Virus record (IMG/VR): IMGVR_UViG_2671181019_000008
DNA length: 13,647 bases
DNA from: a virus
Lineage: Duplodnaviria; Heunggongvirae; Uroviricota; Caudoviricetes
Reading direction: 5' to 3' (one strand)
Shown: positions 3,092 through 12,341 of the stretch, in pieces
Numbering within the stretch: the first letter of the stretch is position 1
Layout of the letters: each line of letters starts with the position of its first letter
Notes under the pieces: model-generated
Seen by the model: the letters and a program-made list of their open reading frames with translations, nothing else
Database searches by the model: none
What the model was told of the DNA's origin: nothing
Translations under genes and position numbers: made by a program

Positions 3092-3302
3092 AAACGGTTT
3101 GCGGGAAAAGGAGAGTTAAGTAGAATTGCAGCGGGTGCTTGAGGCTATCTGTCTCAGGCATGAACACCAAAAGGCAGATAGAGAAAAGCCCCAGTTAACA
3201 TTACGCGTCCGGCAAGACGCTTAACATTAATCTGAGGCCATATCTATGCTCTACACACGTAGGTTAGCCTCTTACGTGCCGAAAGGCAAGGAGAAGCAGG
3301 CT

Positions 3303-3458
3303 ATGAAGCAGCAAAAGGCGATGCTAATCGCCCTGATCGTCATCTGTTTAACCGTCATTGTGACGGCACTGGTAACGAGGAAAGACCTCTGCGAGGTACG
3401 AATCCGAACCGGCCAGACGGAGGTCGCTGTCTTCACAGCTTACGAACCTGAGGAGTAA
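3303..3458 (+). CDS. hokD: Hok/Gef-family type I toxin (51 aa), HokD/RelF-like
   Basis: MKQQKAMLIALIVICLTVIVTALVTRKDLCEVRIRTGQTEVAVFTAYEPEE has the Hok/Gef signature (TM helix, LTRK.LCE.R, TEVA.F.AYE) and matches E. coli HokD/RelF as I recall it. SD AAGGAGAAG upstream. Track ORF 3246-3458 is an in-frame upstream extension. Confidence 0.85.
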   Translation: MKQQKAMLIALIVICLTVIVTALVTRKDLCEVRIRTGQTEVAVFTAYEPEE

Positions 3459-8270: not shown

Positions 8271-9311
8271 ATGGTTTCTGAAACTGTAACGATTACGTTC
8301 TATAAAATTCAAAAATGTGGTTACTACCGTTACGGTGTTGTAAGCCCTGCATTTGGTGGTTGTGACGAGTTGCTCACAGATCTTGCTTTATGGGCAGAAG
8401 GGAAAAAACTCAAACAGACAAAGACATATGAAGCAAATGATGAGGTTTTACCTGCTTATCTTCTGGATATGAAACGTGCTGGTGACAATGTGGTTTTGTT
8501 GCTCTGGAATGAGGTTCCTTCTACAGATCAAAGTGTTCCATCGGTTCAGGAAGATACAGAATTTGGTACGGACCCAACAGTAATACTTAATTCAATCCAG
8601 AAGGGAAGTATTCCTGGTTTTGCTACTTACTTTTGGTTTATTCCATCCATGGATTTAGTGGCTAGCATCAAGTTTAACCATGCTTTGACGGGACAGAAGG
8701 CGATGCAATGCTATCTCTATCATTTTTTAAAACAGTCATCAAGCCACGTTGTGGCGGAAAGTGTGGAGAAGGAAGATGGCACGCATGAGGTGGTTATCAA
8801 GGGCTATAAAATTAACCCAACAGATGATGTGCTGCCAAAGAAAAAACACTATCCACAGTTCGTAGCTGGTTTAGTAAGAAATCCTGGTAAACATGAAGTT
8901 ATTAGGCAGAATGCTAATATTGTTTCTAAAATTGAAAAGGTTGTTGAACTTGATGTGTCAAAACCTGACGAGTTTAGCCTGTGGCAAAAACTATTGATTA
9001 ATATGAATATTAGCCATCCACAAACTGCAAATACCTCAACAAAAATTAGATATGAACTTTCTCCGAATGTTGATATTGATGACATCGAGGGGATGATTGA
9101 TGATTGGAATAAACATAGCGATACAAACTCTTGTGATTATGGTTTTGTATTTAAAGGAGATCCAACGACATATTGGCTCAGTCGTTCATTAGCACGAACC
9201 AAATTCCACTTGAATTTGGAGCGACAGGACGCCGAGTTTGTGTCCTCGGAATCTCTTCTTTCTGAACTTGTAGGCAAAAGGGAGCTCATATTACGCGAGG
9301 CGGGAATGTAG
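8271..9311 (+). CDS. Hypothetical soluble protein (346 aa), first gene of the AT-rich cargo pair
   Basis: Long ORF, clearly AT-rich by eye (first 60 nt about one-third G+C). No motif I can assign. Sits where Stx phages carry stx, between tR' and the holin. Confidence 0.65.
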   Translation: MVSETVTITFYKIQKCGYYRYGVVSPAFGGCDELLTDLALWAEGKKLKQTKTYEANDEVLPAYLLDMKRAGDNVVLLLWNEVPSTDQSVPSVQEDTEFGTDPTVILNSIQKGSIPGFATYFWFIPSMDLVASIKFNHALTGQKAMQCYLYHFLKQSSSHVVAESVEKEDGTHEVVIKGYKINPTDDVLPKKKHYPQFVAGLVRNPGKHEVIRQNANIVSKIEKVVELDVSKPDEFSLWQKLLINMNISHPQTANTSTKIRYELSPNVDIDDIEGMIDDWNKHSDTNSCDYGFVFKGDPTTYWLSRSLARTKFHLNLERQDAEFVSSESLLSELVGKRELILREAGM

Positions 9312-9821
9312 ATGAAAATCTTAGGTGGAATTTTTCTTATGGTCGTTCTGATTTTTTCTGCCTATTTTGGGAAGAATGTTCCCTTCTCATCCCAGTGGCC
9401 TCTTTATGAGGCCCTGCGAACTACAGCATCCATTATCTTTGCAGTTGTGGGAGCTTGGTTTGCGATAATCTATCCTGAACGATTAAAAAAATCATTTAGA
9501 GGTGGCAGTTCAGCGAGTGAATCTAATGGCAGTGGGATTACAAGGTTATTTACACCAATTGTACATTCTACTGCTATTTTAGCATCAGTTTTAATTATTG
9601 GCGTTGTTGCGCCATTAGTAAAACAGATACCGTTTTTTATAGATCACAAGGACATTTTTAGGGGCGCGTCATATGCCATTTTGGTTTTTTTAACTTTATG
9701 GCAACTGTTGACAGTAATTTATAGTCTCATTGGTCCTGATATGGTTAAAAGACATAACTCGTTCCAAGAGAGAGAGAAAGATGCTGCTAATTCTATATTA
9801 CCTGTCAATAAACGCAAATAA
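9312..9821 (+). CDS. Hypothetical polytopic membrane protein (169 aa, about four TM helices)
   Basis: ATG 9312 abuts the TAG of the preceding gene. Four hydrophobic segments: ILGGIFLMVVLIFSAYF, ASIIFAVVGAWFAIIY, AILASVLIIGVVAPL, ASYAILVFLTLWQLLTVIYSLI. Confidence 0.65.
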   Translation: MKILGGIFLMVVLIFSAYFGKNVPFSSQWPLYEALRTTASIIFAVVGAWFAIIYPERLKKSFRGGSSASESNGSGITRLFTPIVHSTAILASVLIIGVVAPLVKQIPFFIDHKDIFRGASYAILVFLTLWQLLTVIYSLIGPDMVKRHNSFQEREKDAANSILPVNKRK

Positions 9822-10133: not shown

Positions 10134-10349
10134 ATGAAATCCATGGATAAGTTAACAACAGGTGTCGCCTATGGCACCTCCGCAGGCAGTGCTGGCTACT
10201 GGTTTTTACAGTTGCTCGATAGAGTCACGCCCTCACAGTGGGCAGCAATAGGTGTGCTGGGTAGTCTGGTGTTTGGCCTGTTGACGTATCTGACAAATCT
10301 TTATTTCAAGATTAAAGAAGATAAGCGTAAGGCTGCACGGGGAGAGTAA
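10134..10349 (+). CDS. S: Class II holin (pinholin), S21/EssQ-like, with dual-start motif
   Basis: [29 protein letters not shown]...[11 protein letters not shown] closely matches phage 21 S21 as recalled. M-K-S-M gives the antiholin/holin dual start. SD GAGGTGGGGG. The track ORF 9960-10349 N-terminal extension is rejected. Confidence 0.85.
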
Positions 10350-10353
10350 TTCA

Positions 10354-10698
10354 ATGACTCAAAACTATGAACTGATTGTGAAAGGGATCCGCAATTTTGA
10401 GAATAAAGTTACGGTAACTTTAGCGTTACGGGACAAAAAACGCTTTGACGGTGAAATTTTAGACCTGGACATCTCGCTGGACCGTGTTGAAGGTGCCGCG
10501 CTGGAGTTTTATGAGGCAGCAGCCAGAAGGAGCATCAGACAGGTCTTCCTGGATGTTGCTGCCGGGTTATGTGAAGGGGATGAGCAGTCGCCGGAAAAGC
10601 GCCCCGTAATTTTAGAGGCGCAGGATGTGTTGATAACCTACAGAGGAAAACTACCGGGAATAATTACGGGTTCTCTGAAGAGTCCGCCGAAATGGTAA
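10354..10698 (+). CDS. Hypothetical protein between holin and endolysin (YdfR/DUF1327-like by position)
   Basis: 114-aa ORF occupying the holin-endolysin gap, where Qin carries ydfR as I recall the gene order; family assignment is by position, not sequence. Confidence 0.5.
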   Translation: MTQNYELIVKGIRNFENKVTVTLALRDKKRFDGEILDLDISLDRVEGAALEFYEAAARRSIRQVFLDVAAGLCEGDEQSPEKRPVILEAQDVLITYRGKLPGIITGSLKSPPKW

Positions 10699-10936
10699 TT
10701 TTACCAGCATATTTTTCATCCAGTAATACAGCAAGCCGCCTGAAAGAGTCTTGTTGTTCCTGAGACCATTTGGGATTGCATGATTCAAACTGGATTGATG
10801 CCAGCGTTGATTGCATCTGTTCCCTTGGAATTGAGAATGCCAGATATGAGAAGGCGACGGTAAGGGTATTCACGTCTTCCCGAAGCCTGGAAATGCTGTC
10901 GAGCAACTCCTGTAGAGAAATGGTGTTATTGTCCAT
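10664..10936 (-). CDS. Hypothetical protein (90 aa) antisense within the lysis cassette
   Basis: Minus-strand ORF with SD GAGGA about 8 nt upstream of its ATG; its 3' end overlaps the 3' end of the + strand gene by 35 nt. Competes with + strand track ORF 10770-10976. Confidence 0.35.
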   Translation of the reverse strand: MDNNTISLQELLDSISRLREDVNTLTVAFSYLAFSIPREQMQSTLASIQFESCNPKWSQEQQDSFRRLAVLLDEKYAGKITISADSSENP

Positions 10937-11041
10937 AAATAATCCTCATGATTGTATTGACCTGTTAGCAGCCTGAGGCAACAGGCTGGAACTGATAAAC
11001 ATATCCAGGGCTCAGAAACCGATAAATCCTGATAAATATCC

Positions 11042-11575
11042 ATGAACGCAAAAATCAGATACGGCCTGTCGGCTGCCGTTCTGGCGCTGATTGCCGCTGG
11101 TGCGCCTGCGCCTGACATTCTCGACCAGTTTCTGGATGAAAAGGAAGGTAACCACACCACGGCATACCGTGATGGCGCGGGTATCTGGACCATCTGCCGC
11201 GGTGCCATCCTGGTGGATGGCAAACCTGTCGTTCCGGGCATGAAGTTGTCGAAGGAAAAATGCGACCGGGTTAACGCCATTGAGCGTGATAAGGCGCTGG
11301 CATGGGTGGAGAAAAACATCAAAGTGCCATTGAGCGAACCCCAGAAAGCGGGGATCGCGTCATTCTGTCCGTACAACATTGGTCCCGGTAAGTGTTTCCC
11401 GTCGACGTTTTACAGACGAATTAATGCAGGTGATCGCAGGGGAGCGTGTGAGGCGATTCGCTGGTGGATTAAGGACGGTGGCAGAGACTGCCGTATTCGT
11501 TCAAACAACTGCTACGGTCAGGTATCCCGTCGTGACCAGGAGAGCGCGCTGGCGTGCTGGGGTATCGACAGATAA
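11042..11575 (+). CDS. R: SAR endolysin (phage lysozyme, R21/RrrQ-like)
   Basis: N-terminal Gly/Ala-rich weakly hydrophobic segment GLSAAVLALIAAGA (signal-arrest-release type); catalytic region EKEGNHTTAYRDGAGIWTICRG with an E..D..T triad; matches E. coli RrrQ as recalled. Confidence 0.85.
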   Translation: MNAKIRYGLSAAVLALIAAGAPAPDILDQFLDEKEGNHTTAYRDGAGIWTICRGAILVDGKPVVPGMKLSKEKCDRVNAIERDKALAWVEKNIKVPLSEPQKAGIASFCPYNIGPGKCFPSTFYRRINAGDRRGACEAIRWWIKDGGRDCRIRSNNCYGQVSRRDQESALACWGIDR

Positions 11576-11665
11576 GCAGAATATTTTGCTGAAAAATGCG
11601 GTTTGCTTACACGGACGGATAACACGAAATCCTGCGAACTGACAAAAACTAAGTGAATAAAAGTA

Positions 11666-11700
11666 AAAACCCCGTTTGTTGGCTGCAAGCGGGGTTTTGT
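11666..11700. terminator. Terminator-like hairpin between endolysin and the small ORF/Rz
   Basis: ACCCCG (11669-11674) pairs with CGGGGT (11690-11695) around a 15-nt loop, flanked by an A-tract upstream and TTTTGTGTTT downstream (bidirectional-looking). Confidence 0.4.
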
Positions 11701-11734
11701 GTTTCCTGACTCTGGAAAAGTCAAAGGAGAAAGT

Positions 11735-11872
11735 GTGTTTGATTTTAGCAAACTGATTCGGGAGATTCGAGTGATGGCTGAAAAATTATCCACCTGGAAG
11801 TTCATTCTTATCTGGCTGGTGTTTGTGATTATGGCCTCCGGTTATTTCATCGGTCAGATACGCTGGTGGTGA
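11735..11872 (+). CDS. Possible 45-aa small membrane protein between endolysin and Rz (not in ORF track)
   Basis: GTG 11735 preceded by SD AAGGAG at 6-nt spacing (or ATG 11774 for 32 aa). Translation MFDFSKLIREIRVMAEKLSTWKFILIWLVFVIMASGYFIGQIRWW has a C-terminal TM helix. Stop TGA 11870-11872 lies 1 nt before the Rz ATG. Confidence 0.3.
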   Translation: MFDFSKLIREIRVMAEKLSTWKFILIWLVFVIMASGYFIGQIRWW

Positions 11873-11873
11873 A

Positions 11874-12341
11874 ATGAACCGCGTACTGTGCGTGGTCATC
11901 ATTGCCCTGCTGGTGGCCTGTGGTGCGCTTAGTCTGGGGCTGAATCATTACCGTGATAACGCCATAACCTACAAAGAGCAGCGCGATAAAAAAGTCAGTG
12001 AGCTGGAGCAGGCAAATGCAACCATTACTGATATGCAGCAGCGCCAGCGTGATGTTGCTGCACTTGATGCCAGATACTCGAGGGAATTAGCCGATGCGAG
12101 AGCTGAAAATGAAACTCTGCGCGCTGACGTTGCCGCTGGTCGTAAGCGCCTGCGGATCAACGCCACCTGCCCCGGTACCGTGCGTGAAGCCCCCACCACC
12201 TCCGGCGTGGATAATGCAACCGGCCCCCGACTGGCAGACACCGCTGAACGGGATTATTTCACTCTCAGAGAGCGGTTGATGCTGATGCAGAAGCAGCTGG
12301 AAGTGGCGCAGGAATATATCCGCACTCAGTGCCTGAAATAA
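11874..12341 (+). CDS. Rz: Rz inner-membrane spanin (i-spanin)
   Basis: 155 aa; N-terminal TM helix VLCVVIIALLVACGALSL followed by a coiled-coil-like charged region; follows the endolysin; contains an embedded +1-frame lipoprotein gene. Confidence 0.8.
   Translation: MNRVLCVVIIALLVACGALSLGLNHYRDNAITYKEQRDKKVSELEQANATITDMQQRQRDVAALDARYSRELADARAENETLRADVAAGRKRLRINATCPGTVREAPTTSGVDNATGPRLADTAERDYFTLRERLMLMQKQLEVAQEYIRTQCLK
12109..12279 (+). CDS. Rz1: Rz1 outer-membrane lipoprotein spanin (o-spanin), embedded in Rz
   Basis: MKLCALTLPLVVSAC has a lipobox (VSAC) followed by a Pro-rich mature region (PPAPVPCVKPPPPPAW); lies wholly inside Rz in another frame. Start taken at the second ATG of track ORF 12094-12279. 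Confidence 0.7.
   Translation: MKLCALTLPLVVSACGSTPPAPVPCVKPPPPPAWIMQPAPDWQTPLNGIISLSESG

Follow-up and report, generated by a model that had tools for sequence, protein, structure and literature searches.

Gene layout of the lysis region

We analysed a 13,647-nt stretch of the Caudoviricetes record IMGVR_UViG_2671181019_000008 (the window), and in particular ORF90, a 90-amino-acid open reading frame (ORF) on the minus strand between the holin and endolysin genes. A preliminary description of the same DNA had reported a 114-amino-acid plus-strand ORF together with this minus-strand ORF, the latter preceded by a good Shine-Dalgarno (SD) sequence and overlapping the former by 35 nt; all were found where it placed them, as were a CCTGTT/AACAGG repeat and a TTGACC hexamer. 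Its label of the plus-strand ORF as YdfR-like was borne out by homology search, which returned Pfam DUF1327/YdfR. The region is laid out as follows.

10134-10349, plus strand: S21-type class II holin, 71 amino acids, N-terminus MKSM (Pfam PF04971 Phage_holin_2_1, E = 4.8e-35; PHROG holin)
10354-10698, plus strand: ydfR (YdfR/DUF1327), 114 amino acids (Pfam PF07041, E = 3.3e-42, 143 bits against a cut-off of 25)
10664-10936, minus strand: ORF90, Ybl58/phrog_2411 family, 90 amino acids (phrog_2411, E = 1.1e-58 over residues 1-90 of 90)
10947 to 10943, minus strand: SD sequence GAGGA of ORF90, 6 nt 5' of the ATG at 10936, kept in aligned relatives
10957-10962, 10961-10966 and 10980-10985: TTGACC, CCTGTT and AACAGG, respectively, in the spacer between ORF90 and R (read from the sequence)
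11042-11575, plus strand: endolysin R, a phage lysozyme (Pfam PF00959 Phage_lysozyme, E = 5.9e-24)
11874-12341, plus strand: Rz spanin (Pfam PF03245, E = 8e-49)
12094-12279, plus strand: Rz1, embedded in Rz (ORF list)

The 3' ends of ORF90 and ydfR overlap over 10664-10698, and 238 of the 273 nt of ORF90 lie outside any other gene. The G+C content is 44.5% in ORF90, 41% in the spacer, 47.8% in holin plus ydfR and 55.6% in R plus Rz. Endolysin R appears to have a hydrophobic N-terminus of the R21 kind. In War-type prophages ydfR is followed by 50 nt and then R, with ORF90 not present, and alignment to this type places an indel of ~295 bp at 10691-10985 of the window. The Qin prophage of K-12 likewise has no ORF90, and its 103-amino-acid ydfR overlaps the lysozyme gene rrrQ. 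Both comparisons agree with the earlier statement that the lysis cassette carries extra DNA.

The order holin-YdfR-ORF90-lysozyme was found in 1104/5426 complete Escherichia coli genomes at ≥80% query coverage (~21%, BL21 included), and the ORF90 module alone in 1131/5426. In BL21 it is located in the Rac remnant, BL21(DE3) carrying the locus as ECBD_RS11710, and it is also present in phages vB_EcoS-783R2 and Chlobot. RefSeq labels the pair 'YdfR family protein' and a convergent overlapping 'hypothetical protein' (WP_000369850.1); the UniRef name of the latter is Ybl58, with an identical sequence on at least 1000 contigs. The Ybl58 family is nonetheless small, with 62 clusters at 90% identity and 19 matches from a HMMER profile search of 1.84 billion representatives at the 50% identity level, the examined members of which have ~80-97 amino acids. 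A second protein scan of IMG/VR recovered the E. coli loci again and nothing further, and a literature search by name and accession (ybl58, WP accessions, DUF1327, HK022 srb) returned nothing relevant.

ORF90 evolves as a protein-coding gene

Judged from its pattern of divergence, ORF90 is a genuine protein-coding gene with purifying selection acting on the protein. Pairwise ratios of nonsynonymous to synonymous substitution rates (dN/dS) were 0.09-0.33 among seven diverged homologues over codons 1-79, which overlap nothing; the homologues compared include those of the window, L078 (BL21 type), L087, the iha-linked locus L090, L086 and Citrobacter L085. Between the window and Citrobacter, differences by codon position number 23, 21 and 47, placing 47/91 at the third position. 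All seven homologues (7/7) translate intact, the sense frame contains no stops in the four that were checked frame by frame, and it remains open down to 62% nucleotide identity. We therefore regard ORF90 as a real gene, because dN/dS of 0.1-0.3, clustering of changes at third positions and the lack of stops in diverged homologues all point the same way. The mirror antisense frame gave a similarly low dN/dS, which is the usual artefact, but is interrupted by stops in the window and in Citrobacter. The length of ORF90 is by itself no evidence, since a 169-amino-acid antisense ORF is also present within R (ORF list), and shuffled sequence folds as well as the spacer does (z of -0.3 to -0.8). Neither the ORF length nor the hairpin would stand out by itself.

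The predicted product of 10.2 kDa is acidic (isoelectric point 4.5), lacks a transmembrane segment and a signal sequence, and is predicted to be soluble. An AlphaFold2 model built on a 23-sequence alignment (mean predicted local distance difference test score of 81) has three predicted helices at residues 8-35, 38-52 and 59-77. The last 8-10 residues, which are antisense to the final ydfR codons, are poorly conserved and modelled with low confidence. An NCBIfam match to Mip (E = 0.037) was discarded as noise.

Relatives of ORF90 occupy several late-operon positions

The preliminary description had left itself open to contradiction on whether the 90-amino-acid ORF is conserved, and the ORF proved to be kept in related prophages. 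In Escherichia, plus-strand ydfR is followed by minus-strand ORF90 in 84/84 loci examined, flanked by holin and R where the contig extends. The P0032-type prophage L087 has ORF90 between holin and R, with ydfR reduced to a broken remnant. In Citrobacter (L085) an 83-amino-acid homologue, 60% identical, converges on a 238-amino-acid gene, and downstream of the pair come a holin of the lambda type and an endolysin with a CHAP domain, unlike the types in the window. This 238-amino-acid partner was considered as a YdfR homologue and rejected, BLASTP and Pfam being negative; only its tail is held in common. In L093-L095 an antisense 88-amino-acid homologue lies between tail genes M and L and converges on a 71-amino-acid ORF, and in L096 the homologue is upstream of the terminase genes and converges on a 62-amino-acid ORF. 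Further relatives of ~30-40% identity share the same helix pattern. In phages, the relatives of ORF90 are always antisense within late operons, at several insertion points, and the convergent 3' overlap is kept in six contexts with lengths of 35, 14, 20, 7, 20 and 17 nt.

An intact 90-amino-acid copy (L090, 3446-3718) resides beside the adhesin/siderophore-receptor gene iha in 60 complete genomes, which include E. coli PK8275, SMS-3-5 and F11. It is 324 bp upstream of iha, divergent from it, and flanked by decayed ydfR and R remnants of a lysis cassette. The family also has two chromosomal copies, one of them between dinI and bssS. Because relatives occur in tail, terminase, island and chromosomal contexts, ORF90 is not tied to lysis genes.

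At this non-prophage dinI-bssS locus (L100, 3001-3279; L101), a 92-amino-acid member occurs in the order rne-pyrC-dinI-ORF-bssS-solA. Lying directly downstream of dinI, it may be co-transcribed with this SOS gene.

The convergent partner carries a conserved tail

The partner of ORF90 is the late-strand gene with which it converges and whose 3' end it overlaps, and the C-terminal tail of this partner is conserved alongside ORF90. In the window this tail is encoded within ydfR.

10630-10695, plus strand: conserved C-terminal partner tail LITYRGKLPGIITGSLKSPPKW, shared with Citrobacter L085, L086, L093 and L096

The tails of the convergent partners approximate to the motif ITGSLKxPP, which occurs in four independent lineages.

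Window: LITYRGKLPGIITGSLKSPPKW
L087 remnant: QITFSGKLPGRITGSLTVPPEC
Citrobacter: TKIEGKIRNEKITGSLRVPMKL
L086: TKINEEMRSNRIIGSLITPPEL
L093: FSIKGNIFSDQIFGDLKKPPSY
L096: VIKGGQLRYKRLTGDILIPLES

None of 8918 background ORFs carried the motif in its last 14 residues. Although the window and L093 tails have no codon in common, six of their residues are preserved by synonymous codons. The greater part of the partner tail in Citrobacter and L093 falls outside the minus-strand ORF, and the constraint on the tail therefore belongs to the partner protein. War-type YdfR retains the tail without ORF90.

Residues 1-74 of the window YdfR are 80% identical to K-12 YdfR, while the C-termini of the two differ. 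The part of K-12 YdfR that matches these residues is reported to bind the N-terminal catalytic half of RNase E, and K-12 YdfR to co-purify with RNA (2026 study, PMC13232886).

A leader cassette precedes many reverse-oriented small genes

Distant ORF90 homologues have the leader in full. Upstream of them, TCAGCC is followed by a hairpin whose arms covary and whose loop, GGCTGAT(T/A)A, is conserved. When IMG/VR was searched with the pattern TCAGCYC-N15-45-GGCTGATWAMC, at least 120 contigs matched (leader loci L336-L455); among the matches listed, 71 had a spacing of 57-58 nt. A pattern scan of metagenomes was set aside, all 120 matches listed being judged chance.

The cassette is ~150 nt long and consists, in order, of a late-strand terminator GC hairpin, the palindrome ACTGT-N7-ATCAGG, CCCTGG-TA..GT, TCAGCC, the hairpins P2 (8 bp, loop GUGGGA) and P3 (6 bp, around GAUGGCUGAUUA), the SD sequence and the ATG; P1 is formed by UCAGCC/GGCUGA. 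Across 31 sequences, 92.6% of the cells in the leader hairpins were paired and six pairs had changed on both sides. The covariation score was 0.180, compared with 0.116 for shuffled alignments (0/500 as high) and ≤0.078 for slid partners, in a sample of related sequences with an effective number of 2.9 in which the search pattern itself fixed P1 and the loop and row L330 is misaligned. The U-G/G-U pairs fall on the cargo strand; the late strand would give mismatches at these places.

At least 25 different small ORFs follow the cassette, and only DUF1883 among them has a Pfam match. The long flanking ORFs are on the opposite strand in 47/49 leader loci (146 kb versus 8 kb). Most cargos converge on a partner that overlaps them at the 3' end, and the C-terminus of this partner varies in step with the cargo type (for example in loci L386/L402, L356/L437/L395 and L363/L372/L443): MTYRFEEL-related cargos have partners ending in VRLL(R/K)F, and the partners of DUF1883 cargos contain QAKG(E/Q). 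This co-variation suggests that cargo and partner are cognate two-gene modules.

In phage HK022 (L456, 1440-1596; NC_002166) two genes annotated as morons, gp22 and gp23 ('srb protein; moron gene product'), converge between tail genes I and J, and the cassette lies upstream of gp23. The HK022 cargo is followed by a clear terminator, and a late-strand terminator lies beyond the cassette. In HK633 (L457, 1326-1415) the cassette precedes gp65, near Rz. It was found in 224/5426 E. coli genomes, with no annotated feature there among the matches listed. Rfam contains no family at either the window locus or the HK022 leader, and strings of the cassette sequence were not found in the searchable literature. 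Two readings of its motifs were rejected on inspection. Neither the window repeat nor the ACTGT..ATCAGG palindrome is a LexA box, the spacings being CTG-N17-CAG and CTG-N9-CAG and not N10, and CTGG..GC is not a sigma-54 promoter, its -12 GC not being conserved.

The window carries a worn copy of the cassette

Comparison with this family shows that the 80-110 nt upstream of ORF90 are, by sequence, a worn copy of a promoter and structured-leader cassette.

10934-11012, minus strand: degenerate copy of the shared leader, ending at the ORF90 start codon (covariance model R1, 15.2 bits, E = 0.18)
10998-11045, minus strand: promoter-proximal block CCCTGGATATGTT, near-identical to canonical L437 and overlapping the R start codon on the other strand
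10621 to 10595, minus strand: terminator-like hairpin GCGCCUC-N9-GGGGCGC followed by UUUU (minimum free energy and centroid folds)

Covariance model R1 matches the same place in L001, L078 and L091. The promoter block of the window tracks L437 closely from ATGGATATTT through CCCTGGATATGTT, with TCAGCC present as TTCCAGCC, and on its far side the cassette is interrupted by the start codon of R. Two alternative hairpins can be drawn on the minus strand, CAGCCTG/CAGGCTG (10988 to 10969) and CCTGTT/AACAGG (10985 to 10961), the latter enclosing the loop remnant GGCTGCTAAC. In RNA terms, the sequence CCAGCCUGUUGCCUCAGGCUGCUAACAGG can form CAGCCUG/CAGGCUG as a counterpart of P1 or CCUGUU/AACAGG as a counterpart of P3. 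The P3 position reads CCUGUU-GCCUCAGGCUGCU-AACAGG with the loop remnant GGCUGCUAAC, in a region where the model match is weak (15.2 bits, E = 0.18). The CCTGTT/AACAGG repeat is thus best understood as a putative minus-strand element, part of the ORF90 leader.

A candidate promoter on the minus strand has TATGTT as its -10 (11003 to 10998) and TTTATC as its -35 (11026 to 11021) at a spacing of 17, a weak match to the sigma-70 consensus. The hexamer TACAAT (10955 to 10950) was dropped as the -10 of ORF90 because the conserved leader hairpin, which should be inside the transcript, is upstream of it. TTGACC was also rejected as a plus-strand promoter for R: it has no -10 partner hexamer, and the scans report no promoter there.

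The terminator-like hairpin is ~45 nt beyond the ORF90 stop, within ydfR. The hairpin is conserved in the E. coli set, and even L087 and L090, with their decayed ydfR, retain it, one G.U pair having become A-U. War-type prophages keep only the first 27 cassette positions, fused to the final ydfR codons, and this remnant suggests that cargo loss gave rise to the War type.

ORF90 as a probable reverse-oriented moron

The reading we favour, to which we assign a probability of roughly 0.6, is that ORF90 is a reverse-oriented moron in a lambdoid late (lysis) operon, acting as a protein and forming one half of a cognate convergent pair. In the passage of PMC3594210 that draws on Juhala et al. 2000, morons are characterized by extra DNA, their own promoter, their own terminator, a divergent base composition and expression from the repressed prophage. 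The ~295-bp indel is such extra DNA, lying between genes that are adjacent in related phages.

On this moron reading, ORF90 would be transcribed independently from the cassette in the lysogen, at a time when late genes are silent, and the transcript would end at the weak hairpin inside ydfR. Upon induction, Q-antiterminated late transcription, running head-on, would silence it. The active product would be a soluble cytoplasmic protein and not an antisense RNA, and it would probably act with, or against, the conserved tail of its partner, here YdfR.

Several observations weigh against this interpretation. Each member of the pair is also found singly, ydfR in the War type and ORF90 in L087 and the iha island, which weakens strict dependence on a partner. 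Searches of ORF90 against Pfam, NCBIfam and PADLOC and by fold and profile comparison yielded no function. Frameshifted versions of 94 amino acids with alternative C-termini exist in the database (P0037, P0049, P0051, P0060 and P0061), and these copies reflect either lineages that are losing the gene or indel errors of assembly. Neither in the window copy nor in the canonical HK022 cassette does a strict scan call a consensus sigma-70 promoter. Consequently, the argument that ORF90 has its own promoter is one of conservation and analogy, and the cassette promoter may need an activator or another sigma factor. P2 is missing from the window copy after TTCAGCC, where CCAGCCUGUUGCCUCAGGCUGCUAACAGG remains, so that the window holds a truncated derivative and not a full member of the cassette family; with a leader scoring 15 bits and lacking P2, the former regulation may have been lost. 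Finally, the U-tract of the candidate terminator, at four U's, falls below the scan rule.

Among the other explanations, the one that survives best is an effector-antidote pair, which we hold to be possible though unlikely. Made in the lysogen, ORF90 would target incoming phages or some host process; once the prophage itself entered lytic growth, the tail of the late partner would neutralize ORF90, and the convergent layout would serve as a transcriptional off-switch. The co-variation of cargo type with partner C-terminus across the cassette family and the specific tail shared by ORF90 partners in four lineages both speak for such a pair, which would also solve the problem of self-interference raised for antisense exclusion factors (PMC7067206). 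However, either gene can occur alone, ORF90 and ten other cargo proteins gave no match in PADLOC, and some of the 'partners', such as HK022 gp22, may not be genes.

The preliminary description had proposed that convergent overlapping genes could modulate lysis timing by antisense transcription. Stated fully, the minus-strand transcript would act mainly as a cis-antisense RNA that pairs with the late mRNA where ydfR ends and across its junction with R, or would cause transcriptional interference, thereby setting the level of R or the S/R ratio and the time of lysis. The convergent 3' overlap is indeed kept in every phage context; in HK022 the late-strand terminator lies beyond the cassette, so that late RNA would be fully antisense to cargo and leader; and lambda OOP-cII and BTP1 STnc6030, inside late genes, are precedents (PMC7067206). 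Nevertheless, we consider this account improbable. An antisense RNA is not required to account for the conservation. Purifying selection acts on the amino-acid sequence of ORF90, members of the family are found among tail genes, near terminase, in an island and on the chromosome with no lysis genes to control, ORF90 persists intact where ydfR and R have decayed, and lysis cassettes without ORF90 are common and presumably work. The locus is thus probably not a lysis-timing device. By analogy, an antisense effect on late mRNA is possible as a side-effect of the conserved overlap.

That ORF90 is a cytoplasmic lysis regulator, produced along with the neighbouring lysis proteins and acting on them as a T4 RIII-like antiholin helper or by inhibiting the endolysin or YdfR, seems very unlikely. 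Its position between holin and endolysin in ~1100 genomes and its small, soluble, helical predicted product would suit such a role, but it is on the strand opposite the late operon, homologues occupy non-lysis positions, and the Citrobacter homologue lies next to a holin and an endolysin of unrelated types. Least credible is a chance, unexpressed frame whose conservation reflects flanking genes: long antisense ORFs do arise by chance in the window and the mirror frame has a similarly low, artefactual dN/dS, but ORF90 lies mostly outside other genes, is open in all seven diverged homologues (the mirror frame has stops in the window and in Citrobacter), is full-length at 60% identity in another genus, and has ~30-40% identical relatives with its helix pattern.

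Returning to the moron reading, the locus is a common and already annotated prophage arrangement that is best filed as a moron. What goes beyond annotation is that the 'hypothetical protein' of about one-fifth of E. coli genomes is shown to be a selected gene with a strict rule of orientation and pairing, and that a cassette supported by covariation, present in neither Rfam nor RefSeq annotation, stands before many unrelated reverse-oriented small genes. The YdfR-ORF90 pair is testable, since K-12 YdfR binds RNase E and co-purifies with RNA. If the cassette governs the expression or movement of morons, it bears on how prophage accessory genes are regulated and shuffled. As a speculative extension, which we regard as rather doubtful, the lambdoid phages of Enterobacteriaceae could carry modular units made of a promoter with a pseudoknotted leader, one of dozens of small reverse-oriented cargo genes and a cognate late-strand partner that overlaps the 3' end of the cargo and co-varies with it. 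The cargo would be a lysogen effector (exclusion, defence or host-modulating), the partner its late antidote, head-on transcription the off-switch and the leader a handle for recombination, and YdfR/Ybl58 would be one worn example.

Other features of the window

Just upstream of the holin are two plus-strand genes, 8271-9311 (346 amino acids) and 9312-9821 (169 amino acids, a membrane protein), which match the PADLOC candidate defence system PDC-M18 A/B (E = 5e-197 and 3e-75, respectively). Stx phages carry stx at a position just upstream of the holin. Between these genes and the holin, the plus-strand segment 9856-10086 contains a promoter-like TCGCCA-18-TATTAT followed by three terminator-like hairpins. 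It fits a late promoter and terminator of the pR'/tR' type, and, if so, the PDC-M18 genes lie upstream of the late promoter.

The gap between R and Rz (11576-11873, ~300 bp) includes a strong hairpin at 11666-11698 that resembles a bidirectional terminator and a 57-amino-acid ORF with a hydrophobic segment at 11699-11872. Relatives have an antirepressor, ParDE or several tiny ORFs in this gap, which looks like another moron hotspot; in L087-L089 (1589-2123; P0032-type prophage) a ParE/ParD pair sits between R and the antirepressor, in the equivalent of the window gap. Elsewhere in the window, a hok/sok-type locus was found on the plus strand at 3133-3308 (Rfam sok antitoxin RNA, 117 bits, E = 1e-26).

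Comparison with known systems

HK022 gp22/gp23 resembles the window pair in having a small gene antiparallel to the late genes whose 3' end overlaps a small late-strand ORF, and the same cassette; the HK022 cargo is followed by its own terminator, where the window has a candidate hairpin. The HK022 morons are attributed to Juhala et al. 2000 where PMC3594210 cites that work. Profiles of gp23 and ORF90 show a weak resemblance (hhalign probability 33%, E = 4e-4), and the cargos are at most possible homologues. The insertion lies in tail genes in HK022 and in lysis genes in the window. The HK022 leader is complete, in contrast to the window copy, which lacks P2, and the HK022 partner lacks the ITGSL..PP tail.

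The essQ(essD)-ydfR-rrrQ-rzpQ region of K-12 Qin has the same order of holin, YdfR and lysozyme and the closely related YdfR N-terminal part described above (80% identity over residues 1-74), but the minus-strand gene is not present, its YdfR has a different C-terminus, and its ydfR overlaps rrrQ. The lambda bor gene is an accessory gene beside or inside the late genes, on the opposite strand and expected to be expressed from the repressed prophage. It differs in encoding a lipoprotein with a known role, whereas ORF90 has no signal sequence.

In T4-type phages, Arbiol et al. in 2010 reportedly described PeSL 'mobile regulatory cassettes', a repeated promoter and stem-loop before varied small genes. 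The likeness suggests that recombination at such repeats shuffles the cargo. PeSL belongs to another phage group and differs in sequence, with early, same-strand promoters, whereas the present cassette runs antisense to the late genes, with a leader that resembles a pseudoknot. A type II toxin-antitoxin system is a co-transcribed operon; ydfR and ORF90 are convergent, and either is found alone.

In prophage ST64B, the accessory gene STMMW_20121 lies antisense to the lytic genes and is independently transcribed in lysogens, an independent promoter having been shown by RNA-seq (Owen et al. 2020, PMC7067206); it is a precedent for the moron reading of ORF90. Lambda OOP-cII and BTP1 STnc6030 share with ORF90 a convergent transcription over the 3' end of a phage gene (PMC7067206). 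These transcripts act as RNAs, whereas that of ORF90 would encode a protein under purifying selection. What sets the ORF90 locus apart from these systems is its strict antisense, convergent pairing with a tail-bearing partner, together with the descent of its upstream region from a shared leader cassette.

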